A stretch of 64,000 nucleotides of DNA from Candidatus Uhrbacteria bacterium (GCA_963822405.1 CAWGHH010000001.1:87296-151295), one strand, 5' to 3'. Positions 8,360-46,292 are shown, numbered from the stretch's first letter. The notes: a model not told the origin generated them from the sequence alone. Program-made: numbers and translations.

Positions 8360-8362
8360 TAC

Positions 8363-11522: not shown

Positions 11523-12017
11523 TTACGCCGAGGCACTCATGCGAGAGCGGATCTCCATCAGGAGGACATCCGGCGCGATTGGCATGAAGATCATGCCGTT
11601 CCGCCTGAGCGAGGTGGTGGTTTTTGCATCCACCACCTGCATCTCTTTGTTGTTGATGACGTATGACGCGATGGTAGCCATGAAGACCGGATCAAGCGTT
11701 TCGCGGATGAGGCTGATGTCGGGCTCATCCGGTGGCAGACCGGAGAGTTTCTTCAACGCTGCGCCCGGGCGAACGATGATGAAGAGCTGATCAGGTCCGA
11801 TATCCCGATGGATCTTCCGGCAGTCGCGGACTGCGAGGTCGCTGTAGACCAACCGTTTACCACGTTCGTCATAGCAGGCGCACTGGCGCATGAACAGGTG
11901 CATCGAGTCCACCCTGCGGCCATTTGCCAGGCCATAGGGGATGTTCTCGGGTTTTGGGGTCTTAGGCATGGGGCCTCTGAAGGTGGGAGTAACAGGCACC
12001 TTGTCCGGGATGGACAA
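11523..12017 (-). CDS. Hypothetical protein
   Basis: 164-aa ORF. Confidence 0.4.
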   Translation of the reverse strand: MSIPDKVPVTPTFRGPMPKTPKPENIPYGLANGRRVDSMHLFMRQCACYDERGKRLVYSDLAVRDCRKIHRDIGPDQLFIIVRPGAALKKLSGLPPDEPDISLIRETLDPVFMATIASYVINNKEMQVVDAKTTTSLRRNGMIFMPIAPDVLLMEIRSRMSASA

Positions 12018-21898: not shown

Positions 21899-22393
21899 AT
21901 GCGCTTCCTCCGAAACTATATTCTCGCCTTTGGCCTTCTTGCTACTTTTTGGTTGCCTTCCGTGGCTCACGCAGCAACGTCGAGTGTTGAATCAGGCTAT
22001 GCGGATATTCTTTCCCAGGGTTTAATCTTTGCAAATATCTGTTCAGCTCCAGCGCCGGCGGCTTGTGCTTGTAGAGATTCTGGAAATTGTCAGCTTTCTG
22101 ACATGCTCCAAATTTTCGTTAACATTTCTATTGGTATTTTAGCTATTAGTGGTTCAGTTGCCTTGCTCATGTTCTTTTACGGCGGATTTACTTGGACAAC
22201 TTCCATGGGCAATCCTAAAAAGATTGAAACCGGTAAGGAAATTATCGTTCGAGCCGTAATTGGTCTCGCCATTATCTTTGGCGCCTACGCTTTTGTGAAT
22301 TTCTTAGTCGCTGCTATTTCTGGCAAGGCTCCTCAAGCCACCATTGAGCAAACTATTGGCGGCGGTTCAGAAAACGTTATTCAAACACAGTAA
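21899..22393 (+). CDS. T4SS-pilin-like (TrbC/VirB2-type) small secreted membrane protein; Cys-rich variable region
   Basis: Signal peptide, then the conserved core NISIGILAISGSVALLMFFYGGFTWTTSMGNPKK...AVIGLAIIFGAY. Confidence 0.55.
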   Translation: MRFLRNYILAFGLLATFWLPSVAHAATSSVESGYADILSQGLIFANICSAPAPAACACRDSGNCQLSDMLQIFVNISIGILAISGSVALLMFFYGGFTWTTSMGNPKKIETGKEIIVRAVIGLAIIFGAYAFVNFLVAAISGKAPQATIEQTIGGGSENVIQTQ

Positions 22394-22395
22394 TT

Positions 22396-22959
22396 ATGCG
22401 GATTAAATCGCTGATTGTTCTTGCTGTAGCCTGCTGCATTTTCCTTGTGCCGAGAGCGAGTGTATTTGCAAGTTGTCGATCAGTGCTCGATGCTTGTTTA
22501 GCTGCGCCAGGCTGTAAGGATTCTGGTTCCTCAGACACACTTACGATCGTAGCCGAAGCTGATTGTCGAGCTGCGTGCGCCACAACGTTTGATGGTTGTC
22601 ACGATACCGTTGCTCCGCCACCCCCAGCCAGTCCGTCCCAAAACCAAAGCAGTTCTGGTGGCACGGCCTCGACTAGCAAAGTGGTGTCAGTGATTAACCC
22701 TTTAGGTATTACCGATCCAACTGTCATCATCGGAAATTTGATTCGCGCCATTTTGTCGATCGTCGGCTCACTGACTCTTCTTATGTTTATTTATGGTGGG
22801 GTGCTTTGGATAACTTCGATGGGGAATGACAAAACCGTTCATAAAGCTAAATCGGTTTTAACTTGGACAGTTATTGGTTTAGCCGTTATTGCTGGTGCGT
22901 ATACGCTAACGAACGCCGTGATTACTAGCTTGACCAGCGGTTCGGCACTTGGTATTTAA
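22396..22959 (+). CDS. T4SS-pilin-like protein (paralog 2), with Cys-rich and Ser-rich variable regions
   Basis: Core IGNLIRAILSIVGSLTLLMFIYGGVLWITSMGNDKT..KAK. Confidence 0.55.
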   Translation: MRIKSLIVLAVACCIFLVPRASVFASCRSVLDACLAAPGCKDSGSSDTLTIVAEADCRAACATTFDGCHDTVAPPPPASPSQNQSSSGGTASTSKVVSVINPLGITDPTVIIGNLIRAILSIVGSLTLLMFIYGGVLWITSMGNDKTVHKAKSVLTWTVIGLAVIAGAYTLTNAVITSLTSGSALGI

Positions 22960-22990
22960 TTATCCTGTCGGCTTGCCCTTAACCAGAAGT

Positions 22991-23467
22991 ATGCGAATTA
23001 AACCGTTTTTGATCGTTGCTACTTTCCTCCTAGCCTTCTTCATTCCGCAGGCTCACGTACTTGCAGATTGTGTGTCAGATTGTAATAGCAACATGGTTTG
23101 GACGGCGTCTAAGCGAGCGGAATGTGTCGCGTCGTGCTCGCAAGGTAACTTTGTGCAAACCGATCCTAATGGGGCATCGACAGATACAACTATCAGACTC
23201 GACAATCCATTAGTTTCTGGAGACCCGCGAGTAATTGCTGGAAATCTTATTCGAGCGATGCTTTCTATTACGGGCTCGATCTCGTTACTTATGTTTGTTT
23301 ACGGTGGCGTATTGTGGATCACGGCGATGGGAAATGAGAAAACAATCGATAAAGGAAAGAAGGTGTTAATTTGGGCGGTGATTGGACTTGCAGTAATTGC
23401 TGGGGCATATACGCTGACAAATGCGGTCATCTACGGTTTGACCACAGGATCCGTGTCTGGTCTTTAA
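22991..23467 (+). CDS. T4SS-pilin-like protein (paralog 3)
   Basis: Core AGNLIRAMLSITGSISLLMFVYGGVLWITAMGNEKT. Confidence 0.55.
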   Translation: MRIKPFLIVATFLLAFFIPQAHVLADCVSDCNSNMVWTASKRAECVASCSQGNFVQTDPNGASTDTTIRLDNPLVSGDPRVIAGNLIRAMLSITGSISLLMFVYGGVLWITAMGNEKTIDKGKKVLIWAVIGLAVIAGAYTLTNAVIYGLTTGSVSGL

Positions 23468-23521
23468 GCTGGTGTATAATATCTTGGAGATTTATTAGTT
23501 TTAATTTCTTTAACCATTCCT

Positions 23522-23932
23522 ATGGTGAAATCACTTATCAGATTCGGGATGAGCGCAGTCTTGGGCCTGGCACTCGCACTTCCTTTTGTGCGTTTGGTTC
23601 CAGCTTTTGCTCCAGTTGCTCACGCTCAGCCACTTGGTTCTGAGGACATCATCAGCTCAGACTTTGGCAACGCCACTGGTCTTGGCCAGGGTGATTTGAA
23701 GCAAACCATTGGAAACCTTATCCGTGTAGCGCTTGGTTTCCTAGGAGTAGTAGCAGTGGTTATTGTTCTTTACGGAGGTTTCAAGTGGATGGTATCCGGT
23801 GGTAGCGATGAGAAAGTGGGCGAAGCTAAGAAACTCATCATCAGCGGTATCATTGGTCTCGCAATTATTCTCTCTGCATACGCCATCACCACGTTCGTCA
23901 TTTCGAACCTGATGACGGCCGCGAACGGTTAG
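23522..23932 (+). CDS. T4SS-pilin-like protein (paralog 4)
   Basis: Core IGNLIRVALGFLGVVAVVIVLYGGFKWMVSGGSDEK. Confidence 0.55.
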   Translation: MVKSLIRFGMSAVLGLALALPFVRLVPAFAPVAHAQPLGSEDIISSDFGNATGLGQGDLKQTIGNLIRVALGFLGVVAVVIVLYGGFKWMVSGGSDEKVGEAKKLIISGIIGLAIILSAYAITTFVISNLMTAANG

Positions 23933-23980
23933 TTGTCTCATGTCTCCGTCCGCATCTTCCACGGAAGGTGCGGGCACGAT

Positions 23981-24370
23981 ATGCGAAAACTGGCAGCCGC
24001 TGGGCTAATGTCACTATCACTCTTGTTGCCGCTAAGTGCCGGCGCCGCTTTTAATGCGGGAGATTCTGGTTTGAATAAGACTGCTGAAGGTGCTTTTGGC
24101 GCTGGCTACACGGGCTCAAGAGGTAATATCGGAACTTTCGTTGGAACGTATATCATTAAGCCAGTTCTCGGCCTGCTTGGTTTAGTTTTCTTGATGCTCA
24201 TGGTTTACGCTGGCGGCATGTGGATGACGGCCATGGGAAATGAAAAACGCGTAGCAAAAGCAAAAGAGATTATGATTGCTGCGGTGATTGGGTCAGTAAT
24301 CATTGTAGCCGCATACACACTAACTAACGCGTTGTTCTCGGCTTTGAGTACAGGAACTCCAACCGGCTAG
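23981..24370 (+). CDS. T4SS-pilin-like protein (paralog 5)
   Basis: Core LGLLGLVFLMLMVYAGGMWMTAMGNEKRVAKAK. Confidence 0.55.
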   Translation: MRKLAAAGLMSLSLLLPLSAGAAFNAGDSGLNKTAEGAFGAGYTGSRGNIGTFVGTYIIKPVLGLLGLVFLMLMVYAGGMWMTAMGNEKRVAKAKEIMIAAVIGSVIIVAAYTLTNALFSALSTGTPTG

Positions 24371-24381
24371 TTAGGATTTTT

Positions 24382-24708
24382 ATGTCTACACTTTTGGCGA
24401 TTAACACTACCACAGGATTATCCGACGCCGGTCAAGGCGCCGGTTATTCTTTAACTCAAACTCCAGCAGAACTTTTGGGTTTTGGCATCCAACTAGTTAT
24501 TGGTCTTTTGGGGGTCGTTTTTTTGATCCTCGTTCTCTACGCTGGATTCACTTGGATGACTTCAATGGGGAACGAAAAAACAGTGGGAAAAGCTAAGGAT
24601 ATATTAGTTCGAGCCACTGTTGGATTAGTGATTATGATTTCGGCTTATGCTATTTCTTCCTATGTCATTGGCGCATTAGATGTGGCAGTGAACGGACCAG
24701 GTGCATAG
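24382..24708 (+). CDS. T4SS-pilin-like protein (paralog 6), apparently without an N-terminal signal peptide
   Basis: Core LVIGLLGVVFLILVLYAGFTWMTSMGNEKTVGKAK. A stop codon lies immediately upstream of the ATG. Confidence 0.5.
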   Translation: MSTLLAINTTTGLSDAGQGAGYSLTQTPAELLGFGIQLVIGLLGVVFLILVLYAGFTWMTSMGNEKTVGKAKDILVRATVGLVIMISAYAISSYVIGALDVAVNGPGA

Positions 24709-24778
24709 ACTGTCCACATCATTTAGTTAAGCTAGGAATTAATAGGTGTATAATTTCTGTAACATTCATTAATTTATT

Positions 24779-25174
24779 ATGAACAAGCTAAAGAAACTTC
24801 TCATTGGTGCGGCGTTGGTAGTAGTGCCATTCTCAACTGCAGTCATGAACGTTAGCGCTCAGACTAGCAAGATTGGCGATAGCTTGGGACAAGTCGGGAA
24901 TGCGGCTCAATTGGGTGGTGGCGGTGAAGACCAGTTGGTTAATACGGTTGGTAGCTTGATTACTACATTCCTTGGAATTTTAGGTATTGTTTTCTTGGTT
25001 CTTGTTCTCTACGCCGGATTCACTTGGATGACAGCTATGGGTGAAGAGAAGAAAATTGCATCTGCTAAGAATATTCTCATCTCTGCTGTTGTTGGTCTTG
25101 TGGTTATCATGTCGGCTTATGCGATTAGTAGTTTCGTGATCGCTCAATTGCAACATGCCACAACAGGAGTCTAG
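24779..25174 (+). CDS. T4SS-pilin-like protein (paralog 7)
   Basis: Core FLGILGIVFLVLVLYAGFTWMTAMGEEKKIASAK. Confidence 0.55.
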   Translation: MNKLKKLLIGAALVVVPFSTAVMNVSAQTSKIGDSLGQVGNAAQLGGGGEDQLVNTVGSLITTFLGILGIVFLVLVLYAGFTWMTAMGEEKKIASAKNILISAVVGLVVIMSAYAISSFVIAQLQHATTGV

Positions 25175-25182
25175 TTATAAAT

Positions 25183-25232
25183 AAAACCCCCGTCTTCTCG
25201 TCGGTTAGCCGATGGGGAGGCGGGTTTTTTGT
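25183..25232 (+). terminator. Imperfect G/C hairpin plus T6, ending the pilin-like array
   Basis: Read in sequence. Confidence 0.4.
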
Positions 25233-25246: not shown

Positions 25247-25277
25247 AAACCCCACACCTTCATCAGGTGTGGGGCGA
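25247..25277 (-). terminator. 10-bp stem CCCCACACCT/AGGTGTGGGG, with a T-run on the - strand
   Basis: Read in sequence downstream of the - strand gene 25360-25966. Confidence 0.5.
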
Positions 25278-25359
25278 ATGACCTCGATTCCCCTTTTAGG
25301 GGCTCGCCCGTAGGGCGGTCTACGCCCGAGGGGACAAAGGGGTCGAGCGCGGGACGGTG

Positions 25360-25966
25360 TCAGTTCCGGGTGCACGACGAGTTGAGCGGTTGATCGCTGT
25401 AGACGATCATTTTGACCTTGGTGACTTCGTCCGGCTGGAGGTCAGAGGGTTCACGGGTGATCACCTTGCAGGTGAACACGCGGGCGGCCTTTGCCGGTGC
25501 GAATCCGTTGCCAGCGTCTGCGTCGTTCATGACGCGCACGGGGCGGTATTGCCCGGGCGCGACCTGAACCGTCATCGGGATGCCGTCTGTCCAGGACTTG
25601 TTCGGATCTACCTCGTAGCCAATGGCGCCGAGGGCGTCACTGCTGGGAGCGATCCCGAACACGCTCGCTTGGGAGGGGAGGCAGTACCTCCAGCCGTCGA
25701 CGGTGAATTCCCCGACGCCGACCATATTCGGGCCATCAAAGGCCGTAACCGTCATGGTCGAGAGCCCCGTGTTCAGCCAGAGACAAGTTCGCGATTCGTT
25801 CTTGATGACGGTGTAGTGCGGCTTGAGCCGACAATTTTCGTTCGGCTCTTGGAGCATGAACGGTCCAGCCGGCAACTGCATGTTGGCGCAGCTGATTGAT
25901 TCGGGGCCGGTGATCATGTCCTGTGCGGAAGCGAGGGACAGGGCGAAGAGCATGTAAGTGAACATG
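25360..25966 (-). CDS. Secreted hypothetical protein (G+C-rich island)
   Basis: Signal peptide MFTYMLFALSLASAQD; RBS GGAG; six Cys. Confidence 0.45.
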
Positions 25967-26098
25967 GCGCACTCCAAAGTTGGGAAGGGATCTGACGGAT
26001 CTGAGGGCGACCAACGGAATATTCCGTGAGTCGCTCTGTAGATCCGGTCTCCATATACGCATTTTCATGCATTTATGGAGACCGTTCAAGTCGTGTGC

Positions 26099-26940
26099 CT
26101 AGTATCCCCAGAACCGATCCCACCAGGACTTGTTGACCTGGGCGTCGAGTTCCTTCTGCTTGGCGGTGAGCTGCGTCTGCAGGTCAGTTGCGTCCGCCAT
26201 GCTGGCGTCCAGCAGCTTCTGCGTGGTGTCGTCGACGATGGGCGCGGCGACCGGCTTGGTGACGCGGTCAACGTGCCGAACCGGCTCGTCGAGCACAGGG
26301 TACTGACCGCCAGTCTGACCGAACGCCATGAGCTGACCCATGCCGTTGCCGTAGCCGAAGGCCTGGCTCATCGGCATTTGGTTGCCGTAGATCGCCGTGG
26401 CCGTGGCCGCGGGCCAGTGGCTGCCGTGGTCGTGCCGTCCGGATTCGTGGTGATGACCACGGCCGGCGTAACGACACCGCTGTTGTTCGCGGTGATGGCC
26501 TCGAACGTGCCGGGCTGGAGAGCCGCGATCTGGGCAGGGGTCAACGTATGCAGGTCGACCGTCTTGGCCTTCGCGAGATCGTACGCGCCCTGGATGGCCA
26601 GCTTTCGCGTGTCGGCGTCGGTCTGATCGATCGCGGTGCGTCCGACGGATTCGAACCAGAGGGACTCCTCATGCGCACGCGCGATGTCGAGCGCGCCCTG
26701 GACTTCGATTCGGCTGGTGGCCGCGTCGTAGCCCTGGATTTGGATCCGTCCGCCCTCCAGGCACTGAGCCTGCATGAGGGCGAATTTCTCGGGGGAGACG
26801 TGGCCTTGGTAGGCACCGTTGGCGCAGTCGATCGTGCCCTCTCCCCGGCCGACAACGGAACCGTTCGGTTCGTTGTGGCGGTCCTGCGCGTTCGCAATGG
26901 AGAGCATCGAGAAGATAACGAACAACATTGTCCACCTCAT
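26099..26940 (-). pseudogene. Secreted hypothetical protein, apparently split by a frameshift near 26395-26420
   Basis: Signal peptide MRWTMLFVIFSMLSIANAQD. A protein-like translation continues in another frame (…ATATAIYGNQMPMSQAFGYGNGMG…) past a GCCGTGGCC repeat. Confidence 0.35.
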
Positions 26941-27011
26941 GAAAGCGTTCGCCGGAACAGCTGTGGAAACTATTCCATCAGCCCATCCGGACCGATAAGA
27001 ATAGCAGAAAA

Positions 27012-27026
27012 TTGACGTTTTGTCAA
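27012..27026 (+). promoter_or_regulatory. Palindrome TTGAC-G-TTTT-GTCAA containing a -35-like TTGACG in the AT-rich region upstream of the 771-aa gene
   Basis: Read in sequence. I could not place the -10 with confidence. Confidence 0.25.
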
Positions 27027-27189
27027 CCGTTATTCAATATATTATGGCTAAGGTTTGAGAGATCTATGATGATGGAGACCATTGACTTTTTCCCCTTTTT
27101 CTGCTAATCTCACCTGTCCTTAGGCGGCAAGAACCGTAAGGGACATTCTTTAACAATTCGCATCAATTTCTCACTAAACGAGGTGTCCC

Positions 27190-29505
27190 ATGATGGATTG
27201 GACGCGTCTGTTGACGCAACAGTTGCAAGAGTTTATGAAGGAAGAGGGGATCACTCCCCTTAACATTCATGAAAAACTGACCGGGGAAGTGCTCAAACGC
27301 TTCCTTGAAAAGTTTGCCGGTACGGCTGATCCCGTGCAGTTGCGCAAGCAGCTGGCGGATGCCCCTGGCGCCGCCGGTTTCTTCATTTCCCTCATGCTGG
27401 CTATGCCGGTTGAGGGACGGCTAGCCACCCTTCTCGTCCTTTCGGAAGTGATGAAGGCAGCGGGCTTGCCAATTCCCACCAGTGCCAGAACTGCAGTCAT
27501 TGCAGCTTTTGGTGCAATGGGCGAGGCCGGAGTAACTGACGCAGATGTGCGCCGGTACCGTTCTCGCGTGCTCTCGTATTTCAACAGCTCGGCCATTCCG
27601 GCTGAGTCAGTTCCTGTTCCCATCGAACCCATCACCGGGGCCTCGGCAGTGCCGACTCCAAAGGATACGAACATGAGTCCCCTGATCAATCCGTTGTGTC
27701 TCACTTGGCCGGTCACTCCGGTCGCAGTTGAGCAGCCGGGATTCCATGTGTTCGCCGTGCCGGGTGTCATTCATCAGGACTTCGGGCCGTCCGCGTCCGC
27801 GCAGACTCCCGAAACCGTCGCCGCGAGCACGACCCAGAATCCGTTGCCTGGTTCCGCTGAACCGCCTCCCTCGGGTGGCGATCCGGTGGTCCCGCCGAGC
27901 AATCCGCCGGAGCCCGTGACCGTGAACAACGTTCCGGTCACGCCTCCGTCCGGTGGTGGTGGGGCAATCCCTCCGTCCACCGGTCTCACTCCGCGCCGCG
28001 AAGGCCCGGATGGTAACCGGTGGCGGTACTTGGACTTCATCATCAATGACGTCCTGCCGTTGCGCGAAAACGAGACTTTGACTTTGCCCGATGGCCAGCT
28101 CAAATATCGATTTGGGTTGGCCTGGGTACAGGAGCACTTGGGAGAAGATTCCGCATTCGGCAAGCAGGCGCGTGAAGCGTTCTCGCTGTTGCCGGAGATG
28201 ACGGAATTGGAGCGTGCGACACTTGAGCCTCACCTTGTGGTGCTCAGGCGGGTGCACGCCCCGAAGAGCACGGTCACGAAGGCGGAGCGCAATCTCGCCA
28301 CCGTGCCTGTGAACGACGCGATCCACCTGTCGCACGCCTGGGACGTGCGGATCCGGGTCATTGCCCAGGCCAACGCCTGGTTCTGGCGCCGGTGGTTCTT
28401 GTTCGGCCTCGCGGATCTCGCGGACGATAAAAACGATGACGAGTTCCGTGAGTGGCGCAATGGAATCTTGAAGATCTTCGGATTCGGTTCCGCCACCACC
28501 ACGGCCGTTATCGCGATCGGCGCGCTCATGCTCGGTCGCAAGGCGTACAACTGGCTCACCAAAAAACCGGAGGCAATCACGAGTACAACGTCAGGTACAG
28601 GAGGCGGCGGCGGAAATTCCGGCGGCACTTCTCCGGGATCGACTCCGGCGAAAGAACCCACTCCGTTTGTGACCGTACTCGGATGGTTTCTGATCGTGGT
28701 GTGTCTGATCATGGTCATCCCATGGATTGCGAGCTGGTTCGTCGAGGGCATGTCCATTCGTGCTCTGATGGTGACTGCTCCGATCGTGACGATCTGGTGT
28801 GCCAAGTATCTCCCCTTCATCCATGATCCATGGGTGTGGCCGAGGGAGAGCGTCGTGCTAAACGACGACACCAACGCGCTCGTGAAAGGGCGAGTTGACG
28901 TGAAGTCGAGGATCTTCGAGGCGATCAACGAACGCAATTTGAAGTTGTTGCTCGTAACGCCAGGCATCTGGCGGCGGCTGCTTCTGAAGATTGCTCTCGG
29001 GGCCGTGTTGATTGGCGGTATCATCATGAACTTCGTCTTCATCTTCACGGGTGACTCACACATCGCGCAAGCCTCGATAACGGTCGGGATACTCGCGGCG
29101 GGATTTTTCCTTGATCTCGCCCAGCTCTTCAATGCATATTTCACGTTCTCAGAGATCGCGGATATGCTCAAGCCGGTGTTCAGGCCGGCGCTCAAGCTGA
29201 TCGTTGGCGTGATCGTGGTGGGTTTGGGGAGTGAGCTTCTCTTCCCGGGCATCGGTCAAGTCGGTTTGCTCGCTAAGGTTCAATCAACAACCAGAGCCTG
29301 GGCTCCGGTTTCCAAGGAAATGGTGAAGACGGGGTTCCTCACTGCTCCAGTTGGTGACCTGTGGTTCCGATCGGAACCCGTAACCAAGCCTTTGATCGCA
29401 TCCGTTTCCGGTACCTGCGCGTCGCGGGATCGGATGGAGGCGCGGATGGCTGGTTACTGCAGTAACGCCCAGACGAAGAACGACGGGCGTTGTAAGTGCG
29501 AGTGA
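27190..29505 (+). CDS. Large multi-pass membrane protein with Pro/Gly-rich linkers; function unknown
   Basis: 771-aa ORF in a G+C-rich segment with several TM helices in the C-terminal half. Confidence 0.5.
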   Translation: MMDWTRLLTQQLQEFMKEEGITPLNIHEKLTGEVLKRFLEKFAGTADPVQLRKQLADAPGAAGFFISLMLAMPVEGRLATLLVLSEVMKAAGLPIPTSARTAVIAAFGAMGEAGVTDADVRRYRSRVLSYFNSSAIPAESVPVPIEPITGASAVPTPKDTNMSPLINPLCLTWPVTPVAVEQPGFHVFAVPGVIHQDFGPSASAQTPETVAASTTQNPLPGSAEPPPSGGDPVVPPSNPPEPVTVNNVPVTPPSGGGGAIPPSTGLTPRREGPDGNRWRYLDFIINDVLPLRENETLTLPDGQLKYRFGLAWVQEHLGEDSAFGKQAREAFSLLPEMTELERATLEPHLVVLRRVHAPKSTVTKAERNLATVPVNDAIHLSHAWDVRIRVIAQANAWFWRRWFLFGLADLADDKNDDEFREWRNGILKIFGFGSATTTAVIAIGALMLGRKAYNWLTKKPEAITSTTSGTGGGGGNSGGTSPGSTPAKEPTPFVTVLGWFLIVVCLIMVIPWIASWFVEGMSIRALMVTAPIVTIWCAKYLPFIHDPWVWPRESVVLNDDTNALVKGRVDVKSRIFEAINERNLKLLLVTPGIWRRLLLKIALGAVLIGGIIMNFVFIFTGDSHIAQASITVGILAAGFFLDLAQLFNAYFTFSEIADMLKPVFRPALKLIVGVIVVGLGSELLFPGIGQVGLLAKVQSTTRAWAPVSKEMVKTGFLTAPVGDLWFRSEPVTKPLIASVSGTCASRDRMEARMAGYCSNAQTKNDGRCKCE

Positions 29506-29518
29506 CTTCGGCGTAATG

Positions 29519-29568
29519 GCCGGTGTGCGGTGGGTTCCAATCCCCACTGCGCACCGGTCGCTTTTTTT
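29519..29568 (+). terminator. Long hairpin plus T7
   Basis: CCGGTGTGCGGTGGG...CCCACTGCGCACCGG followed by TTTTTTT. Confidence 0.6.
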
Positions 29569-29603
29569 ACGGAAGGTTTTACGTGGGGTATGCTTAGTCA
29601 TAT

Positions 29604-31063
29604 ATGTCAGCTCTCGCAAAAAATTCAGCTTTACAAATTGGCGGTAAATTATTTGGGACAGTTTTTGGCCTCATCACTTTTTTCTTACTGCTTCAGTACT
29701 TCGGCACAGAGGGTTACGGTTTGCTGACTACGGCCATGACTTACGTGGCTATTTTTGGAGTGGTGGTGGACTTTGGTTTGACCTTGACTACTACGCAGAT
29801 GATTTCTGAGCGTGGGGCAGATGAGGAGAAGATTTTGGGGAACTTACTAACTTTGCGTGTGCTGTCGGCTTTGGTTTTTATGGCCATTGCGCCAGTGACT
29901 GCGCTCTTTGTGCCGGGTGTTAAGGAGGTTGTACTTTTGGTATGCATAGCTACTGGCTCGTCATTTTTTGCATCAGTTGGCCAGACGTATATTGGAGTTT
30001 TTCAAAAACGTTTACAGCTTGGCGCACCAGTTTTGGGCGAGATGCTGAATAGGTTGATCGCTTTGAGCTGGGTTATTGCTGCCGGCGTTTTACACCTCAC
30101 ATTATTTTACGCATCACTCGGATTCTTCGTGGGTGGCTTCGTCCAGCTTTGCATTATGCTTCTTGGGACGGCTCGATTTGTAAAACTTCGTCCTAGATTT
30201 GAATGGCATGTTTGGCGAGATGTTCTAGTTAGAAGTTGGCCGATTGGCATTTCTATCTTTTTTAATCTTTTGTACTTGAAGGGCGATATTCTGTTCATGG
30301 CCGTTCTGCTGGATCCAGCCAGGCGGTTTATTGAAATCGGACAGTATGGTTCCGCGTATAAAGTGGTAGACGTGATGACCATGGTGCCAGTTACTTTCAT
30401 GGGTCTCATGTTGCCGATCTTAACTTTGGCCTGGAGCGAGAGGAACCGGGAGAAATTTGATCGTAGCCTCCAAAACACATTTGATATTTTTGCGCTGATT
30501 GCCATTCCGTTTGCAGTTGGCGCAGTTATGCTCGGCGTGCCGGTAATGACAGCGGTCAAGCCTGACTTGATCCTTGCTGGTCAGGTGTTGGCGATTCTTG
30601 GTCGGCAGCCGCCATTGTATTCTTCAACTCGCTGTACGGCCATGCGGTGGTAGCTGTAAAGAAACAGAAGATTATGACTTTGGCGTACTTAGTGGTGGCC
30701 GTAGTTGCCATAGTTGGCTACGTCCTTTACATTCCTATTTACGGCGCCTGGGCAGCGGCTTGGGTGACCTTGCTGTCCGAGTCATTGATCGGTCTGTTTG
30801 CGTTCATAGTTGTTTCAATGACTACCAAGCGTTTGCCGAACTTGAAAATGACCGCTCGTGCAGTTGTCTCGACCATTGCTATGGCGGGGGTGATCGGATT
30901 TTTCACTTCTCGGTATGACGCTACGGCAAACCCAGCCTTAGCAGCCTTTATTGTAGTGACCGGTATCATTGTTTACGCTGCAGCTATTTCTGTTTTAGGC
31001 GGACCACGGCCACAAATGATTGCTAAATTGTTCCTACCCGAGAAACCAACAGGGAGTGTATGA
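29604..31063 (+). pseudogene. wzx: Wzx-type polysaccharide/oligosaccharide flippase (MOP superfamily) split by a -1 frameshift near 30597-30602
   Basis: Polysaccharide-biosynthesis-protein N-terminus plus the typical C-terminal helices. Frames join as ...LAILG|SAAAIVFFNSLYGHA...; the two parts total about 487 aa. Confidence 0.55.
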
Positions 31064-32279
31064 CCATGATTATTGTTCTTCTCGTTTCAATTTCTTTTGC
31101 ATATTTAACATATCGCGACTTTAAGCTCGCGCTTTTTGTTCTCTTGGCGCTCTTGCCAACCTACCTGATTCGTTTTTCGATCGGCCCCGTGCCGACTACA
31201 TTACTCGAGTGCCTAGTGCTCATAGCTATCGGGTTTTGGTTCGTTCGAGAGAATGGTTTTAAGCTCGATTTCTTACGGACAATGGCCCGTATCGAGTTCC
31301 GATTTTGCTTCTGCTCGCCGCTTCCTGTTTTTCGGTAGTCGTCGCGCCTGATGTATTTTCCGCACTTGGTATTTGGAAAGCCTATTTTATCGAGCCGATA
31401 CTTTTGTTCTTCGTGTTTCGGTCTACGTTTACCGAACGCAAAGATTGGGAATACGGATTTTTCGCTCTTGGTGGTACGGTTATCGTTTTGTCGATCTTCG
31501 CAGTCGTCCAACGACTCACTGGCTTTGGTATCCCAACCCCCTGGGACATTGAACTCAGGGCTACGAGTTTCTTCGATTTCCCCAACGCTCTCGGATTATT
31601 CGCCGCACCAATTACATCCGCGGCCTTGGTGTATGGGTTTGGCGTCGCCAAACCCGTACGCCGCGGATTTGCTTTCGCCATCGCTCTCCTCGGCTTCCTC
31701 GCCTGCCTCCTCTCCCAAACTGAGGCAGCTTTTGTTGCGATCCCCGCATCTCTCCTTTTGGTTCTCTTTGCGTCGAGCGTCCCTTCGGGATACAAAGCGT
31801 GGATCGGCTCGGCGGTTCTTCTCCTCGGTTTTGTTGCCTTCATGTTTGTTCCCATCATTCACGAGAAACTTCTTCTCCAGGATTTATCTGGTCAGGCTCG
31901 CTTAGCCCAGTGGAGCGAAACTTCATCGTACCTGAAGACTCACTGGTTAACGGGCGCTGGTCTTTCCGGCTATCCCTCGGCCATTAAGCCGTATCACGAT
32001 CCTCGAGTGTTCGAAATCTTCCAGTTCCCGCATAATGTCATTTTGAATTTCTGGGTCGAGCTTGGATTGCTCGGCGTTATCGCATTCGTCGCGTTTATTG
32101 TGGTGGTGGTGCGACGAATGGTCACGGCAAGTCGCGACCGTACAACGCAGGCAGATATATTCGTCCTCATGGCCTTCGCCGCTCTTTCGACAATGTTCAT
32201 CCACGGCCTCGTTGACGTGCCATTTTTCAAGAATGATCTAGCGATACTCGCAGCATTTTTCTTGGCAATGGTGTTATAA
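31060..32279 (+). pseudogene. O-antigen ligase/polymerase (Wzy/WaaL) family membrane protein, probably frameshifted near 31263-31300
   Basis: Multiple TM helices and an ETAAFVAIP-like loop. The 92-aa and 324-aa ORFs overlap in two open frames, and the second starts at TTG. Confidence 0.4.
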
Positions 32280-36928: not shown

Positions 36929-37402
36929 ATGCTAGCCGCTGAACCAAAATACCGCCCGAACGCCGCCATAATTGTGACGGATGGAAAGGGACATGTGCTC
37001 ATGTGTGAACGTAATGATTTGCAGTATGAGGGGACGTGGCAAACGCCCCAGGGAGGCATTGATAAAGGGGAAACTGCTCGCCAAGCAGCTGAACGAGAAC
37101 TTGCCGAAGAGCTCGGGCTCGCACCGGAAGAATTCGACATCATTGCAGAGTCGACGAAGAAATATAAGTATGAGTGGACAGCCACTTATCAGCTTTTGAA
37201 TCCATATCGTGAATTTGTTGGACAAGAACAGCAGTTTTTCTTAGCAAAAGTTCATCCAGACGCGCAATTTTATTTGGACACAGCCGGTCACGGTGAATTT
37301 AAGCAGGTAAAGTGGGGGAGTCCGGCCGATTTAGTTAAGTATTGTTGGTCCGCAAAACGCCCCGGAATCGAGGCGTCATTGCGCGAATTCGGATTATTGT
37401 AA
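36929..37402 (+). CDS. NUDIX hydrolase (RppH/NudH-like)
   Basis: Nudix box GGIDKGETARQAAERELAEELGL. Confidence 0.7.
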   Translation: MLAAEPKYRPNAAIIVTDGKGHVLMCERNDLQYEGTWQTPQGGIDKGETARQAAERELAEELGLAPEEFDIIAESTKKYKYEWTATYQLLNPYREFVGQEQQFFLAKVHPDAQFYLDTAGHGEFKQVKWGSPADLVKYCWSAKRPGIEASLREFGLL

Positions 37403-38473
37403 TTCTGTGGTAGGGGTCGACCCATGCGTCGACCCTCTTTGTATTTCGAGAATTCCCGTCGGCACGCCCAAATCGTCCATCATTGTCTGTGCCTTGTCAC
37501 CCGCGGCCGGCGACATCTGTCTCTTCTCCAGGTACATTGGTTCAAATTTAAGCGTCAATTTGTCAGCCTCAACAGTCATGCGTAACGCCATGCCCCTTTT
37601 TGTTTGCTCTGACCAATCTTGGTCGAATAGAAAATTTCCGAGCGAGTAAACAATCGGCACGCCGTTGTAGGTTTCGTAGGTTTCGACTATATGCGGATGT
37701 CCGCCAATAACTGCATCTGCGCCGGCGTCGACGAAGGCGTGCGCGGTTTTAACCTGCGAGCTCGACGGGTCATGTTCGTACTCCACGCCCCAGTGAGGCA
37801 TGACAATCACGAAATTTCCGGCTGCTTTTTCAGTTTTGATCGTCGCGAGAACTCCTTCCGAGGTTTCGTTGAAAGCGTGAAAACCGATGAACGCGAAGTT
37901 AATCCCGTTTACAGTTTTGTGGGCGACGAAATCACCGCTTTTCCACGGGTCGCCAAACGGCGTCATGCCATTGTCGATAATTGTTTGTCGAGTTAATTCT
38001 GTGGTCGTGTTTCCAAAATCATCAGTGTGGTTATTTGATAATGACAGGACGTCGAATCCGTGGCTCGCCAGCATTGTTACGTTGTTAGGAGTTGTATCGA
38101 ACAGCATGACATTTGTAACCTCAATGTTTTGTTTTTCGCGAACTGAACTTTCGAAATTACCAATCAACAAATCATTATTCGAAAGTAAATCCCCGACCTT
38201 TTCAAATATATAATCTTGTCCGTAAGTTTTGATGTATTGTTCAACGTTCCGCGCCATCATGATATCGCCCACAAATTCCAACGTCGTCGAGGTCGCGGTA
38301 GGGGTCGACCCATGCGTCGACCCTTCCTCACCCCGCATCCCCGCCACCTTCAGGTAATGGGTTTGAATGTGTTTGATTGGTTTTGCAATGGTAGTAAATG
38401 GGTCGACCAAAAGAAATCCGACGAGAATAGTCGAACCGAGACCAGTTAAGAGAAGCGAGGAGTTCTTGTTCAT
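37394..38473 (-). CDS. CapA/PgsA-family metallophosphatase, membrane anchored, with in-frame GSTHGSTP repeat insertions near both termini
   Basis: FVGDIM...NFES...SNNH..D.G...GGHPHIV...YSLGNFLFDQ motifs. The hairpin repeat occurs at 37413-37435 and 38301-38323. Confidence 0.65.
   Translation of the reverse strand: MNKNSSLLLTGLGSTILVGFLLVDPFTTIAKPIKHIQTHYLKVAGMRGEEGSTHGSTPTATSTTLEFVGDIMMARNVEQYIKTYGQDYIFEKVGDLLSNNDLLIGNFESSVREKQNIEVTNVMLFDTTPNNVTMLASHGFDVLSLSNNHTDDFGNTTTELTRQTIIDNGMTPFGDPWKSGDFVAHKTVNGINFAFIGFHAFNETSEGVLATIKTEKAAGNFVIVMPHWGVEYEHDPSSSQVKTAHAFVDAGADAVIGGHPHIVETYETYNGVPIVYSLGNFLFDQDWSEQTKRGMALRMTVEADKLTLKFEPMYLEKRQMSPAAGDKAQTMMDDLGVPTGILEIQRGSTHGSTPTTELQ
37413..37435. repeat. 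Hairpin repeat GGGGTCGACCCATGCGTCGACCC, copy 1 (inside the CapA ORF 3' end)
   Basis: 8-bp stem GGGTCGAC/GTCGACCC with loop CCATGC. Confidence 0.8.
38301..38323. repeat. Hairpin repeat, copy 2 (inside the CapA ORF 5' region)
   Basis: Same 23-mer preceded by GTA. Confidence 0.8.
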
Positions 38474-38485
38474 GAATAGAAAAGC

Positions 38486-39202
38486 CTACTCTGTTGGCGG
38501 AATAAATTCAATGCTTTTCACTAGTCGCTCAATATTTTCGGCTGGTTTATCGAACCCAGCTTTTCCCATAAAACGTTCATCAGATGCTGAATACATGTCG
38601 AGTGATACGCTGTCGATAGTCGTGTTAAACGCGGGGATCAGATAGGAAGAGCTACCAGCGCCTGAGAGTTTGGCAATTCCACCGGTTGCGATAGTTAGGT
38701 TTGAGCAGGTTGAGCTAGTGATGAAATTACCAGCCCAAGATGGCATGGTTGAACTTGATTCTCTTAGTAACGAACAAACATCAGCTTGGTTAACTTGATC
38801 CATCCACCGAGGGTCTGGTTGTACAAACCAAGAAAGGTCGCCCCAGTATCCCGCGTGACCAGTCGGCTCGACATATTCTGCCCCCATGAAGTACACCCGT
38901 TTAGGGTCATTCGATAAGCCGGTTTGCGAAAACGAGAAGAATACGCCACCATCACGCTTTTCAACGACGACCGTTCCATAGCTCTTCGGATAACCAAATC
39001 TGATGCCAAGAGCTGAGTTCTCATAAAGCATGGCCTCTGTTCCGGGAAGCTGATGCGCCGTGCCAACATTATACACAAGTGATTCGGCCGGTAATTCAGC
39101 GGGTGAAGTTGGCTTTGTCTTTGGGCCAAGGTTCGTATACATGATGAGAGCCAAGCCGGCGAGTATGCCCACGATCCCGAACAATAGAGAATAGCGCTTC
39201 AT
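38486..39202 (-). CDS. Membrane-anchored hypothetical protein
   Basis: Start placed at MKRYSLLFGIVGIL so that it does not overlap the tRNA. Confidence 0.45.
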   Translation of the reverse strand: MKRYSLLFGIVGILAGLALIMYTNLGPKTKPTSPAELPAESLVYNVGTAHQLPGTEAMLYENSALGIRFGYPKSYGTVVVEKRDGGVFFSFSQTGLSNDPKRVYFMGAEYVEPTGHAGYWGDLSWFVQPDPRWMDQVNQADVCSLLRESSSTMPSWAGNFITSSTCSNLTIATGGIAKLSGAGSSSYLIPAFNTTIDSVSLDMYSASDERFMGKAGFDKPAENIERLVKSIEFIPPTE

Positions 39203-39255
39203 ATATTTGTTTTCTCTATCATAACAAAAATACCTCGTTACCGAGATATTTTTGG

Positions 39256-39330
<75 letters not shown>

Positions 39331-39383
39331 GTTTCGGTCAATACATTAACATGCGACGTTTTCAGCGTCAAACGTTAGAAATA

Positions 39384-39824
39384 TTAGCGGTCTGCGAGTA
39401 GGCGAAGACGCGAGTTTGATCGTTCGAGCGTGCTGATACGAACTTCGTGGTTTAGGTGGCTCGATTCTAGGCGTTCGACAATTCCATGAGTTTTTATGGC
39501 GTAAACAGCCACTTCATCAAGGCACTCATCTATGCGGTCGATTTTTATCTCTAGTTGATCAACTTTTGTTTCTAGCTGGTCGAATCTCTGATCCATGATG
39601 TCGAATCTACAGTCCATTTTGTCAAATCTCTGATCCGTCACATCAAATCTCTGATCCATCACATCAAATCTCTGATCCATTACATCAAATCGCTGATCCA
39701 TCCGATCGAATTTGTGATCAACCAGATTGAATTTTTGATCAACAAGATCAAATCTCGAATTCATGTCTGACCGAAGATCGGTGATGCTTTTGAGAATTTC
39801 TTGATTAAGGGAAATTTCGTTCAT
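39384..39824 (-). CDS. Repetitive coiled-coil protein with about 8 heptad repeats (M/T)DQRFD(V/K/I)
   Basis: The ORF contains 21-bp tandem DNA repeats. Confidence 0.5.
   Translation of the reverse strand: MNEISLNQEILKSITDLRSDMNSRFDLVDQKFNLVDHKFDRMDQRFDVMDQRFDVMDQRFDVTDQRFDKMDCRFDIMDQRFDQLETKVDQLEIKIDRIDECLDEVAVYAIKTHGIVERLESSHLNHEVRISTLERSNSRLRLLADR
39598..39765. repeat. About 8 tandem copies of a 21-bp unit (CACATCAAATCTCTGATCCAT-like) within the CDS
   Basis: Read in sequence. Confidence 0.7.
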
Positions 39825-39913
39825 AGGAATATTTTCAGTCTACACGATCTATTTAGGCGAGTATAGCACCAGTTTAGGGCCGGAAAATCCGGCCCCTATT
39901 TGTGCGGAGAGGG

Positions 39914-40159
39914 CTATGCGGCGACAGGTACGGTGACGAAGTTGCGTGGGCGTATTCCTTCGATAGCTTGTTTCTTTAAGAGCCAGCTGATGCCTTGTTT
40001 GTTGCCACTCTTGTATTGTTCACGAGCAATTTCGTTAATGAAGCTGTAAATTTCATGCGCTATGTCTTCCGGCATGTCGAACTTCACCATTAATGCATTG
40101 TAGCGTTCTTCGAGAATGTCATACCAGGATTTCTTTGGGGTCTTGATTGAGTCGGTCAT
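39914..40159 (-). CDS. Small hypothetical protein
   Basis: 81-aa ORF. Confidence 0.35.
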   Translation of the reverse strand: MTDSIKTPKKSWYDILEERYNALMVKFDMPEDIAHEIYSFINEIAREQYKSGNKQGISWLLKKQAIEGIRPRNFVTVPVAA

Positions 40160-40169
40160 ATTTGAGGTT

Positions 40170-40192
40170 GGGGTCGACCCATGCGTCGACCC
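40170..40192. repeat. Hairpin repeat, copy 3 (intergenic, preceded by GAGGTT)
   Basis: Same 23-mer. Confidence 0.8.
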
Positions 40193-40204
40193 TTAGAATA
40201 ATTA

Positions 40205-42394
40205 TTAGGAGATTAAAGGTATCGTTATGCCTTTTGCTTTGGCGAACCAATAGGCTAGGGCACCAAGGCTAGTTGTCAGTAATCCTCCTCCTACCCACGG
40301 AACCGGTTTGGTCGGTGAATTAATCGAGGTTGGGGTCGACCCATGCGTCGACCCTGCTGGTGGTAGGGTGGCTCCCCCTCCTTTCGAAGGAGGGGGTAGG
40401 GGGGAGGTGATTGGTCCGCTTTCGGTTCCCATCGACCCATTCAGGATGGTCAACCCCGTCTGGTCGAGGATCGTCACCGTCCACGCTCCCTTCACTAGTC
40501 GAACAATTCCGGTTACGGCTACGCGGTCATCAAAGGCGAGGTTAGAGAAGTCTACGGCTGTTGTTTTAGACGAGTTCGCAACGATCAGTTCTCCATTGTC
40601 GAGGCCGATTGTTAGACTCTTACCGGTAAGGTCAACAACCGAACCGCTGAGGCTCATGAGAAGACCGTGCGTTGCATCGTCGAGTGTTTCAAGCGCATCT
40701 GGCGCAATAGAGTCATCGCCGACAATTTGGATGTTTGATCGCTTGGATATTTTTAGTCGAGTGTACCCATCTTTCGGATCAACCACGCCTGTTACTCGAA
40801 TGCGCGTCATGGGCGAAAGTTTCGGCCAATCAGCTTTATTGAAGTAGATTTCTAGTCCGTCTATGTACGCCAGTTGTTTTCCAAACATGCCGGGGAGTCC
40901 AACCAGGACTCCCTCCACGGTAACCGTAGTCTTTGCGGCATAGTTCGTAATCTCCGATGCATCGATAACTGGAATTGCGGGTTCTGATTGGTTCGCTCCT
41001 CCCTCTCCACGAAGTGGAGAGGGCCGGGGTGAGGTCAGGGGTGGCTCGATCTGCGTACTCGCAGCTACTACGCCCGTTGCCACTTGAGGTTCGCGCTCCA
41101 CCCGAATAGGGGATGCGGTTCCGGTAGAATTGTCAGTCCCTGTATTTGATCCCGAATTGGTTTCAGGATTGCTGATAACGGTCGTAGTGTCGTTTGCTGT
41201 CTCATATGTGATGTTGGGGTCGACCCATGCGTCGACCCTTGAATTAGTACCAAGTGGCGTTGGATTAGTTTCTGCCCATGTGTCAGTGAATCTTGAGAAC
41301 GACCTTCCTTTTTTCGGCGCACTCGTTTTGTCATACGAGATTGCGTCGATCGTCGCTCCGGTTCCATCGAACAAGAAGATGCTGTCGCCATCATTATTCA
41401 GTTTGCTTTTTGGATTTTGCAGGACAAAGAATGAATGAGCTTCGAGTGTCTGTGTCGGCAACATTGTTTTACTTGTCGTTGCATCTTTTTCCGTCCAGCC
41501 TGTGAGGTCGATCGGTCCATCTGTCGTATTAAGGATTTCGATCCACTCTGTTCCGTCGACGGGATCCGACACAAACTCGTTGATGACTACGGAGTGTGCG
41601 GGGTACGAGTGGAACATGGGTGAGTCGGTGGCCGCAGGTGCGGTCGAAGGTATCGTTAGCGACGCTTTGCATTCAGGGGCGGCCGCCTCAACCGTCACGA
41701 TCCGTACCGGACAAATCAAGCACGGATCCGCAATCGGTACAGTCTTCTCAACCAGATCCACAACTAATGGCGGTTCTGGCTCGGGCGTGATCAGGAGTGG
41801 CTCGCTTCCCCCTTCCAGGGGGACAAAGGGGGTCGTGATCGGGGTGGTCAGGAATGGTTCGCTTACTCCCCCTCCTTCCGAAGGAGGCTCGCCCGTAGGG
41901 CTGGTAGTCAGGGCTACGCCCGAGGGGGGTAGGGGGGTGGTCGAAAACGCCGCCACCGGCGCCTCAAACTCAGGGGTGGTCGGGTAATGGTCAACTTCCG
42001 TCCCATCACTCGCAATCAGTGTGAGGTCCAGGGCAGAGTTCGACAGCGACACCGCAGTCGTCACCACATCAGGTTTTATGGTCAGCGTCGTTTTCGGGTC
42101 GCCGAGGTCGTAGTTGCTGATGAGGAACGTTCCGTTCGCTGGAATAGTCGAGTTTGTCGGGAGGGGGAGTGGTTTGCCCACTCCCGCCCCGCCTAGAATC
42201 GACCAGCCCGTAAGATCAATCAATGTGTCGCTTAGGTTTTTTAGTTCTAGCCATTCGTCCGCGGTGCTCGCTTCGCTGCCTGCCCAGTTGATTTGGCCAA
42301 AGGTGGCTTTGGGTGCTGCATCCGCACGGGCGGATAAAGGAGACAGAGCGGGCATGAGGGCGATGATTCCCAAGAGTCCATATGCTAGTTTCAT
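40205..42394 (-). CDS. Large secreted protein with two lamin-tail (LTD) domains and a C-terminal TM anchor, carrying at least 7 in-frame hairpin-repeat insertions
   Basis: LTD-like segments (INWAGSEASTADEWLELKNLSDTLIDLTGWSI; VVINEFVSDPVDGTEWIEILNTTDGPIDLTGWT). The repeats encode PPPSKGGG, GSTHGSTP, SPLRGEGG, RVDAWVDP, PLEGGSEP and PPSEGGG. Confidence 0.5.
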   Translation of the reverse strand: MKLAYGLLGIIALMPALSPLSARADAAPKATFGQINWAGSEASTADEWLELKNLSDTLIDLTGWSILGGAGVGKPLPLPTNSTIPANGTFLISNYDLGDPKTTLTIKPDVVTTAVSLSNSALDLTLIASDGTEVDHYPTTPEFEAPVAAFSTTPLPPSGVALTTSPTGEPPSEGGGVSEPFLTTPITTPFVPLEGGSEPLLITPEPEPPLVVDLVEKTVPIADPCLICPVRIVTVEAAAPECKASLTIPSTAPAATDSPMFHSYPAHSVVINEFVSDPVDGTEWIEILNTTDGPIDLTGWTEKDATTSKTMLPTQTLEAHSFFVLQNPKSKLNNDGDSIFLFDGTGATIDAISYDKTSAPKKGRSFSRFTDTWAETNPTPLGTNSRVDAWVDPNITYETANDTTTVISNPETNSGSNTGTDNSTGTASPIRVEREPQVATGVVAASTQIEPPLTSPRPSPLRGEGGANQSEPAIPVIDASEITNYAAKTTVTVEGVLVGLPGMFGKQLAYIDGLEIYFNKADWPKLSPMTRIRVTGVVDPKDGYTRLKISKRSNIQIVGDDSIAPDALETLDDATHGLLMSLSGSVVDLTGKSLTIGLDNGELIVANSSKTTAVDFSNLAFDDRVAVTGIVRLVKGAWTVTILDQTGLTILNGSMGTESGPITSPLPPPSKGGGATLPPAGSTHGSTPTSINSPTKPVPWVGGGLLTTSLGALAYWFAKAKGITIPLIS
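40332..40354. repeat. Hairpin repeat, copy 4 (inside the LTD ORF; encodes GSTHGST)
   Basis: Same 23-mer preceded by GAGGTT. Confidence 0.8.
41217..41238. repeat. Hairpin repeat, copy 5 (inside the LTD ORF in another frame; encodes RVDAWVDP)
   Basis: Same motif preceded by GATGTT. Confidence 0.8.
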
Positions 42395-42605
42395 AGTTAA
42401 TTATTAAGGATCAGCGAACCGGATTCATCAAACGCGCGTGTAAACAACAAACCCCAGGGCTTGCCTCTGGGGAGAGGAAGCTCTGGGGGTTTTGTTTACC
42501 CATATATTGCACCACACTATCCGATCTCTTCTGATTTTGCGGTGGGGATAACTAAAAAAATCGGCATTATACCGATGTTTTTTACAAAGTTCTATTTAGA
42601 TTCTC

Positions 42606-42690
42606 TGGTGGGCGAGGGGGGACTCGAACCCCCACGGATTGCTCCACATGCTCCTAAGGCATGCGTGTATGCCAATTTCACCACTCGCCC
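42606..42690 (-). tRNA. tRNA-Leu (anticodon TAG), with a long variable arm and encoded CCA
   Basis: Reverse complement gives acceptor GGGCGAG/CTCGCCC, anticodon stem CATGC/GCATG, loop CTTAGGA. Confidence 0.75.
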
Positions 42691-42787
42691 GTGAAAAGGA
42701 GTGTATTTGAAAAATAGTTCTTTTGCAATGTTAGAATGTATCAATCGAATTAGGTGCGAGTATAATGGTGAAAAATCAATAATTTTT

Positions 42788-43969: not shown

Positions 43970-43971
43970 GT

Positions 43972-44007
43972 AAAAAAACTGACCGTAAAAAGCGGTCAGT
44001 TTTTTTG
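43972..44007 (+). terminator. Hairpin CTGACCG-TAAAAAG-CGGTCAG plus T7
   Basis: Read in sequence. Confidence 0.7.
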
Positions 44008-44050
44008 TTGCAATTTTCTGATATCAATCGCGCTAATTTTATAGTGTAGA

Positions 44051-45058: not shown

Positions 45059-45093
45059 TGTAAAATAGTTTAGAAAATAAGTAATATTCTCCT

Positions 45094-46260: not shown

Positions 46261-46269
46261 TTTGTCGTA

Positions 46270-46292
46270 GGGGTCGACTTCTATGTCGACCC
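46270..46292. repeat. Hairpin repeat, copy 6 (degenerate: GGGGTCGACTTCTATGTCGACCC)
   Basis: Same stems with a diverged loop. Confidence 0.6.

Follow-up and report, generated by a model that had tools for sequence, protein, structure and literature searches.

How does a discrete block of G+C-rich DNA, coding for secreted and membrane proteins, come to lie beside a pilin array in a Candidatus Uhrbacteria genome, and does it belong there? The block, hereafter the island, occupies positions 25280-29570 of a 64,000-nucleotide (nt) stretch of DNA (GCA_963822405.1, CAWGHH010000001.1:87296-151295; here called the window), and it holds three genes, which we call A, B, and C. The original prediction, made from the window's sequence, had offered horizontal acquisition or a chimeric or contaminating assembly segment as explanations, and had proposed the large membrane protein encoded by C as a partner of the neighboring pilus subunits. 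The reading we prefer, with a probability of roughly 0.55, is that of a native module of three cell-envelope genes, restricted to its lineage and passed on by vertical inheritance. Gene content and the literature suggest that the organism is probably Patescibacteria/CPR-like, with a small genome.

The compositional anomaly itself withstands calculation. G+C content is 59.2% in 25280-29570 vs 48.2% in the rest of the window (window mean 49%), and many 200-nt windows of the island reach 60-70%. Scored in 2-kb windows against the rest of the window, the island has z-scores of 3.7-4.5 for G+C and 4.3-5.9 for tetranucleotide distance, the sole other comparable compositional outlier lying at 62-64 kb. 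Moreover, G+C at third codon positions (GC3) is 0.70-0.87 in the frames of A, B, and C vs 0.37-0.57 in neighboring genes of the window. These GC3 values, together with orthologs, confirm the assigned frames, and they explain the long Arg-rich antisense open reading frames (ORFs) as shadows. An extreme shadow of the same bias occurs in the related locus L010 (see below), where a 614-aa antisense ORF (8077-9921, -) covers the whole of gene C (8095-9885, +), the + strand holding the conserved C-terminal Cys motif. The original prediction had described a rise in base composition over about 25.3-29.5 kb with several 200-nt stretches above 60% G+C, a hairpin cluster and a strong terminator as the two borders, and Arg-rich opposite-strand ORFs that were antisense artefacts and a further sign of atypical codon usage; each of these points holds.

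The borders are built from transcription terminators. On the left, an intrinsic terminator of the pilin array (25189..25224, +), conserved in relatives, is followed by that of the B-A operon (25249..25275, -), which consists of an 11-bp stem and then a T run and is partly conserved in relatives. Next to these, in the 3' untranslated region of gene A, lies the G/C hairpin cluster (25286..25345, fold z = -5.5), one copy of the CCCCCTT..AGGGGG-ACAAAGGGGGT repeat that is dispersed in this genome, here interrupted by a nested 29-nt insert; it aligns with window repeats at 41795, 44437, and 61241 and is absent at the corresponding site in 6/6 relatives. On the right, the intrinsic terminator of gene C (29517..29568, +), with an 18-bp stem and T7, is near-identical in all relatives. 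DNA conservation between genomes stops at the left terminators and restarts exactly at the 29517-29568 terminator. The dispersed G/C-rich palindrome (CTTCCCCCTTCCAGGGGGACAAAGGGGGT and variants) to which the cluster belongs is found at 41795-41849, 44437-44488, 61241-61285 (-), 40366-40403, and 59816-59853 as well as at 25286-25345; some copies sit inside ORFs, namely those for a Lamin Tail Domain (LTD) surface protein, a Peptidase_C39_2 protein, and a 413-aa product (60323-61564), which is reminiscent of elements that insert in frame into genes.

That the island is native follows from its relatives. A word-indexed search of 5.8 billion proteins returned only two relatives of the 771-aa protein C, a HMMER profile search of 1.84 billion cluster representatives found seven members of its family, and a third search, word-indexed with the seven-member alignment, gave only the three proteins already known. 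Six of the seven members could be placed in context, all in one gene order: SBP, VirB2-like pilin array, A (-), B (-), C (+), and Polysacc_synt, with Wzy_C and SpoIID coming after Polysacc_synt on contigs reaching that far. The seventh (P0008) comes from L007, a 1.3-kb fragment on which a short unannotated ORF is all that can be seen downstream. A scan of metagenome contigs with a conserved flank gene revealed an eighth member of like layout, L010, and no empty site. The full-length loci, L001 (JGI sample 3300013232), L002 (GCA_964348985.1), L004 (JGI sample 3300064746), L005 (Logan run SRR22387838), L006 (an 897-kb contig, JGI sample 3300037810), and L010, make seven genomes together with the window. 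The order is conserved in all six, as is the step in G+C, with GC3 across these relatives at 0.64-0.93 in the island vs 0.43-0.63 in the flanks. For example, L002/L003 (CAYGEQ010000019.1) is a 13.7-kb contig syntenic with the window whose flank proteins are 78-89% identical. Because both the layout and the G+C rise recur in six other independent assemblies, the island is native to its genome.

Like a classical acquired genomic island, the locus is a discrete 4-kb block bounded by hairpins and terminators, and its G+C, tetranucleotide, and GC3 values deviate as those of such islands do. Unlike one, it contains A, B, and C alone, with no integrase, tRNA target, or bracketing direct repeats of at least 14 nt (the nearest tRNAs are at 12.1 and 36.7 kb), and it is found in every relative examined, that is, in all seven related loci, instead of being scattered among them. 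Likewise, no homologs outside the lineage were found among the 1.84 billion representatives, by tblastn against phages and plasmids, or in an IMG/VR scan limited to the C family, and the G+C excess persists after about 1.5 synonymous substitutions per site. Horizontal acquisition is therefore unsupported as a recent event.

The genes themselves are intact and well organized. Gene A (25360..25965, -), identified as an ORF by translation, encodes a 201-aa putative secreted protein of an orphan family with orthologs in six loci and a GC3 of 0.79; its signal peptide is MFTYMLFALSLASA, with cleavage at QD, and the protein has conserved cysteines and is beta-rich by prediction. Gene B (26099..26928, -), recovered by three-frame translation, encodes a putative secreted protein of about 276 aa with signal peptide MLFVIFSMLSIANA, again with QD cleavage. 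Its N-terminal domain contains Cys, its middle is rich in Gly and Thr, and toward the C terminus it has a coiled-coil-like stretch and a W-rich end finishing in GY. As read from the sequence, both signal peptides are of Sec type, ending in A-x-A followed by QD, and cysteines are conserved in both proteins. A relationship of A and B as paralogs was considered and is undetectable, their alignment being confined to the signal peptides.

Gene C (27190..29505, +) encodes a 771-aa membrane protein, also of an orphan family, represented by the seven cluster representatives and by L010. Residues 1-130 form a conserved N-terminal domain that is missing from the L006 and L010 versions, and residues 135-265 form a Pro-rich linker. 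A helical domain follows (270-410), and 6-7 hydrophobic helices are predicted within residues 425-692. The C-terminal tail carries an invariant four-Cys motif, C-x12-GYC-x(8-10)-C-x-C. AlphaFold2 gave a predicted local distance difference test score (pLDDT) of 45 for C from a seven-sequence alignment and of 38 for A from a single sequence, so that these models are unusable for fold assignment; residues 270-400 of C are the sole confidently modeled part (pLDDT 75-85). The gene content is thus that of the original prediction, which had listed two secreted - strand proteins, one of them frameshifted, and a 771-aa + strand protein with Pro/Gly-rich linkers, which are present as quoted there, and C-terminal transmembrane helices.

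The frameshift in B is a 1-nt indel at 26412/26413, which cuts the gene into ORFs 26368-26940 and 26099-26377. In an independent Logan assembly of run ERR12037365, contig L008 matches window 25305-29533 at 99.95%, and its sole difference, at 26412/26413 (GGAACC vs GG-GCC), restores an intact 276-aa B; the orthologs, too, are undivided genes of 226-299 aa. Similar 1-nt deletions near window 30601 and 31284 disrupt Polysacc_synt (split into 29604-30653 and 30647-31063) and Wzy_C (31060-31338 and 31305-32279), and both are repaired in Logan contig L013. There is also a converse case, with indels in the Logan contig over the RuvB region at 36.2-36.5 kb. Since the window's frameshifts are repaired in the independent assembly, they are consensus errors or minor strain variants and not signs of pseudogenization, and apparent pseudogenes in the window call for caution.

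Transcription of the island is self-contained. Reading of the sequence finds good Shine-Dalgarno motifs ahead of A, B, and C. The 250-bp, A+T-rich spacer between B and C is conserved between genomes only in two promoter blocks. The B-A operon promoter (26998..27026, -) reads TTGACA, 17 nt, TATTCT, with TG upstream, and its TTGTCAA and AATAGCA blocks are conserved in 6/6 loci; the gene C promoter (27082..27110, +) reads TTGACT, 17 nt, TAATCT. The -10/start region of the latter (TTTTCTGCTAATCTCACCTGTCC) repeats the B-A promoter core in inverted orientation, and the two -10/start regions (TTTTCTGCTAWTCT...GTCC) together make up an inverted repeat of 23 nt (26989-27011 / 27097-27119, 83%), a resemblance suggesting that the B-A and C units may be under common control. 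Two palindromes occupy the B-A intercistronic region (26004..26084, -), one at 26004-26037 and one at 26045-26084 with an 18-bp stem. Because each unit has its own terminator, transcription of the module is separate from that of the pilin array and of the polysaccharide genes. Between genomes, the divergent promoters and the terminators are kept while the coding DNA diverges. Rfam matched no known RNA in the island, its untranslated regions included.

This divergence sets the three proteins apart from their surroundings. Flank proteins share 76-89% identity among the first six genomes and 67-79% with L010; protein A shares 16-54% between genomes (one pair reaching 80%), protein B 24-40%, and protein C 25-50%. 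Between the window and L001, gene C has a nonsynonymous divergence (dN) of 0.47 and a synonymous divergence (dS) of 1.70, vs 0.07-0.11 and 1.6-4.3 for the flanks; across the island, dN runs at about 4-6 times the flank value, and dS is the same or lower. The ratio dN/dS is about 0.7 for A (L002 vs L004) and about 0.05 in the flanks. Since island dS does not exceed flank dS, a local hotspot of mutation is rejected. Despite this fast protein change, the ORFs, signal peptides, cysteines, membrane helices, and promoters are all kept.

The elevated G+C of the island has also persisted. At fourfold-degenerate sites, G+C is 81-92% in A+B and 57-79% in C, vs 42-61% in the flanks of the same genomes, and A+B fourfold usage is 6% A, 49% C, 37% G, and 7% T. 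In the flanks, fourfold divergence has a median of 1.54 and a minimum of 1.31 substitutions per site. A simple equilibrium model lets a passive excess decay to at most 0.41 of its starting value per lineage, so that passive inheritance of the observed A+B excess of 26-44 points, present in seven lineages after saturation and with no visible donor, would need an ancestral fourfold G+C above 100%. Retention of the excess through a flank synonymous turnover of about 1.5 substitutions per site means that the bias is actively maintained; a passive relic of ancient transfer cannot account for the G+C kept at synonymous sites, nor can amelioration of foreign DNA explain an excess that outlasts their saturation. 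G/C-ending codons are up generally (AAG, CAG, CCG, GTG, and also NNC), and codon positions 1 and 2 shift too. The rise of G-ending as well as C-ending codons, together with the shift at positions 1 and 2, points to a pressure at the level of DNA or RNA and makes classic translational selection unlikely. No ribosomal-protein genes were identified among the window ORFs scanned.

How such a module might work can be outlined. Divergent, near-identical promoters of the sigma-70 type would drive B-A (-) and C (+) separately, and the B-A operon would yield two Sec-exported, cysteine-containing proteins. C would serve as a polytopic membrane anchor or scaffold, with a large soluble N-terminal part and the four-Cys C-terminal tail, and A and B may be its exported partners at the cell surface, possibly in an A-B-C complex. 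If this surface assembly engages in antagonistic or partner-specific contact, for example with a host cell or a phage, diversifying selection could be the cause of the rapid amino-acid change. The G+C-richness is a locus-specific equilibrium in every lineage, for whose upkeep the candidate forces are selection and biased conversion, at the level of the coding DNA or of its mRNA.

Several other explanations have to be weighed against this one. An assembly chimera, or a contaminant from a G+C-rich organism joined at the hairpin-rich borders, would fit the sharp composition shift at both borders, the 1-nt indel errors in the window, and the breaks of the ERR12037365 Logan contigs exactly at those borders (L009 ends at 25327, L008 covers 25305-29533, and L013 starts at 29539). 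However, those contigs are broken inside hairpins, and their ends agree with the window, meeting or overlapping (by 23 nt on the left); the border terminators show conservation between genomes; the left hairpin is one of the window genome's own repeats; and the same joins, gene order, and G+C step appear in six assemblies from other samples and pipelines, which refutes the chimeric or contaminating segment of the original prediction. Chimerism, contamination, and recent acquisition are excluded, the residual chance of a chimera being minute. Quite unlikely, too, is a replacement island whose trio came from a G+C-rich donor and whose alleles are re-imported or swapped by recombination in the conserved flanks. 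This would account for the strongly atypical composition and tetranucleotide signature, for an A+B fourfold usage resembling that of high-G+C bacteria, for the sharp stop and restart of DNA conservation at the terminators, and for the mosaic pair L004/L006, whose A genes have a dS of 0.56 while B and C are 35-42% identical. Yet there is no donor and no phage, plasmid, or viral copy, all readable contexts of the family lie in one syntenic slot, and the same three orthologs and promoters occur everywhere. Furthermore, dS of C equals flank dS, as expected for co-descent, integrase, tRNA, and att-like repeats are absent, and exchange within the lineage would not prevent amelioration.

The pilus connection deserves a fuller hearing. 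An array of seven genes for VirB2-like pilins (T4SS_pilin, PF18895; Pfam, 3/7 genes) lies just outside the island (21899..25174, +) and is present in all relatives; all seven pilins align on a YGG.W....G...K core with nine invariant columns (fuller consensus YGGF.WMTSMGNEK). On the pilus interpretation, the island would serve the VirB2-like pilus or type IV secretion system (T4SS) as an accessory module, C being a divergent VirB6-like channel or platform, and A and B tip adhesins or minor subunits that set host specificity. Adjacency to the array holds in seven genomes, C is polytopic like VirB6, and the array pilins, too, vary between genomes. In Patescibacteria, moreover, VirB6 homologs are reported to be scarce or absent in some classes, which has been ascribed to extreme sequence divergence; Saccharimonadia and Microgenomatia commonly carry VirB2 arrays, and a cultivated Saccharibacterium cannot do without its pilins (PMC12102498, PMC10633639). 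The island recalls such VirB6/TrbL systems in having a large polytopic membrane protein encoded beside a multi-copy VirB2-like array, in a genome of patescibacterial appearance. Against this stand the lack, in each of the seven C-family members, of a match to TrbL/VirB6, TrbC, or T4SS_pilin at E up to 1, a probability of 0.2% for C against the window pilin alignment (hhalign), the absence of a PF18895 match in A, B, and C, and the absence of VirB4, VirD4, VirB3, and VirB8 families on 30 of the larger window ORFs, scanned with Pfam (E <=1e-5; others unscanned), 12 of which have no match of any kind. The array also ends in its own strong terminator, with A converging on it and having a terminator of its own, and the island promoters are separate, and, unlike the widespread VirB2 arrays, the C family is restricted to one narrow lineage and missing from all other lineages that bear pilin arrays. 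Given the close kinship of the seven genomes, their shared adjacency should be taken as one observation only. We therefore hold the pilus interpretation to be possible but doubtful: of the partnership proposed in the original prediction, the conserved adjacency stands, and against it are the island's own promoters, the convergent terminators, and the missing similarity to pilins or VirB6. A long shot is that the actinobacteria-like codon usage is kept because the module has to function in, or against, a high-G+C host cell, for example if DNA or mRNA were delivered through the T4SS or pilus and expressed there. A more modest version, which needs no host, is that an undescribed locus-specific mechanism (targeted biased repair or conversion, or mRNA selection) holds the block 30-40 points above the synonymous G+C of the genome for more than 1.3 substitutions per site, even as the encoded proteins diversify.

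Some observations weigh against a native, vertically inherited envelope module as well. The A genes of L004 and L006 are 80% identical with a dS of 0.56, and flank dS for this pair is at least 1.8, suggesting occasional allele exchange and a descent that is not purely vertical. A high dN/dS that stays below 1 is also expected from relaxed constraint, and the homology and fold searches, with models as poor as those for C and A, tie no function to the three genes. The metagenome-assembled genome holding L002/L003 is labeled 'uncultured Gammaproteobacteria bacterium', although the contig is probably mis-binned. Finally, pilins 2 and 3, which diverge between genomes to 45-47% identity, have ordinary GC3, so that divergence or recombination alone does not explain the bias, and G+C-biased conversion driven simply by either is weakened as a cause. 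Heterologous alleles would presumably be unable to form heteroduplex inside the island, which would weaken simple biased conversion further.

Searches for known families and elements were negative within their scope. A, B, and C have no match among Pfam, NCBIfam, PHROG, PADLOC, or PDB-sequence profiles, and Foldseek against PDB returned none for the island proteins. No reverse transcriptase was found on the 30 larger ORFs scanned with Pfam, which cover part of the window, and no repeat of at least 35 nt is shared between the island and other parts of the window. A diversity-generating retroelement target was considered and rejected on these grounds, the divergence moreover spanning three whole genes. 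Prophage and integrative-element readings were rejected as well, given a content of A, B, and C only, with no integrase and no att-like repeats.

The nearest known kind of locus is the hypervariable surface replacement island, here with three new protein families. O-antigen and capsule loci and the pilin and pyoverdine loci of Pseudomonas aeruginosa are replacement islands, which usually swap non-homologous gene sets, often of glycosyltransferases, and typically have lower G+C than the genome. The island shares with them a fixed chromosomal slot between conserved flanks, a divergence far above that of the genome, an atypical composition, predicted envelope or secreted products, Wzx/Wzy-type polysaccharide neighbors, and hints of allele exchange. 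It differs in that content does not vary by strain, the same three orthologous orphan genes and divergent promoters being found in all genomes here, in a G+C that is 10-15 points higher, in a synonymous divergence no greater than that of the flanks, and in a bias that outlasts expected amelioration. A further example is the cell-wall island of Haloquadratum walsbyi, a replacement (flexible or 'metagenomic') genomic island for a surface structure (PMC4535781).

Epibiotic bacteria with small genomes rely on contact with the host surface, and the proteins that give this contact its specificity are largely uncharacterized. As the fastest-evolving genes of their neighborhood, located beside a pilin array, A, B, and C are candidate determinants of host range or phage interaction. 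The locus is also a clean natural case for studying the evolution of bacterial G+C, in which selection can be set against biased conversion.

Elsewhere in the window, a second G+C-rich patch (61850-64000; G+C z 4.3, tetranucleotide z 5.2) consists of small - strand ORFs with a GC3 of about 0.7 and A+T-richer gaps between them. It contains direct repeats of 100-150 nt at 61867-62012, 62334-62430, and 63844-63990 (92-94% identical), which include an imperfect hairpin (CCTCATCTGATCACTCAAGG...CCTTAAGTGATCGGATGAGG), and its layout resembles that of a cassette array; neither Pfam, for its 204-aa ORF, nor Rfam gave a match. A hairpin of about 25 nt (GGGGTCGACCCATGCGTCGACCC) occurs in seven copies within 37399-46983, several at gene ends, and has the look of a repetitive extragenic palindromic (REP) element or a terminator repeat. 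Directly upstream of tRNA-Gly and the LTD protein gene lies a tandem array (39580-39726) with a 21-nt period (TCAAATCTCTGATCCATCACA-like). The LTD gene itself (40205-42394, -), with mildly raised G+C (54%), encodes a secreted protein of 729 aa that combines two Lamin Tail Domains with Pro/Gly/Ser-rich linkers and has a membrane anchor at its C terminus; it is probably another surface protein. Two tandem 141-aa paralogs with a hemerythrin-like look (10595-11020 and 11027-11452) are followed by a 164-aa - strand ORF (11523-12017) that is a compositional outlier with a GC3 of 0.75. The 23S and 5S rRNA genes (48792-52022) have no 16S immediately upstream, so that the rRNA operon appears unlinked, and the 23S match spans 3032 nt vs a 2925-nt model.

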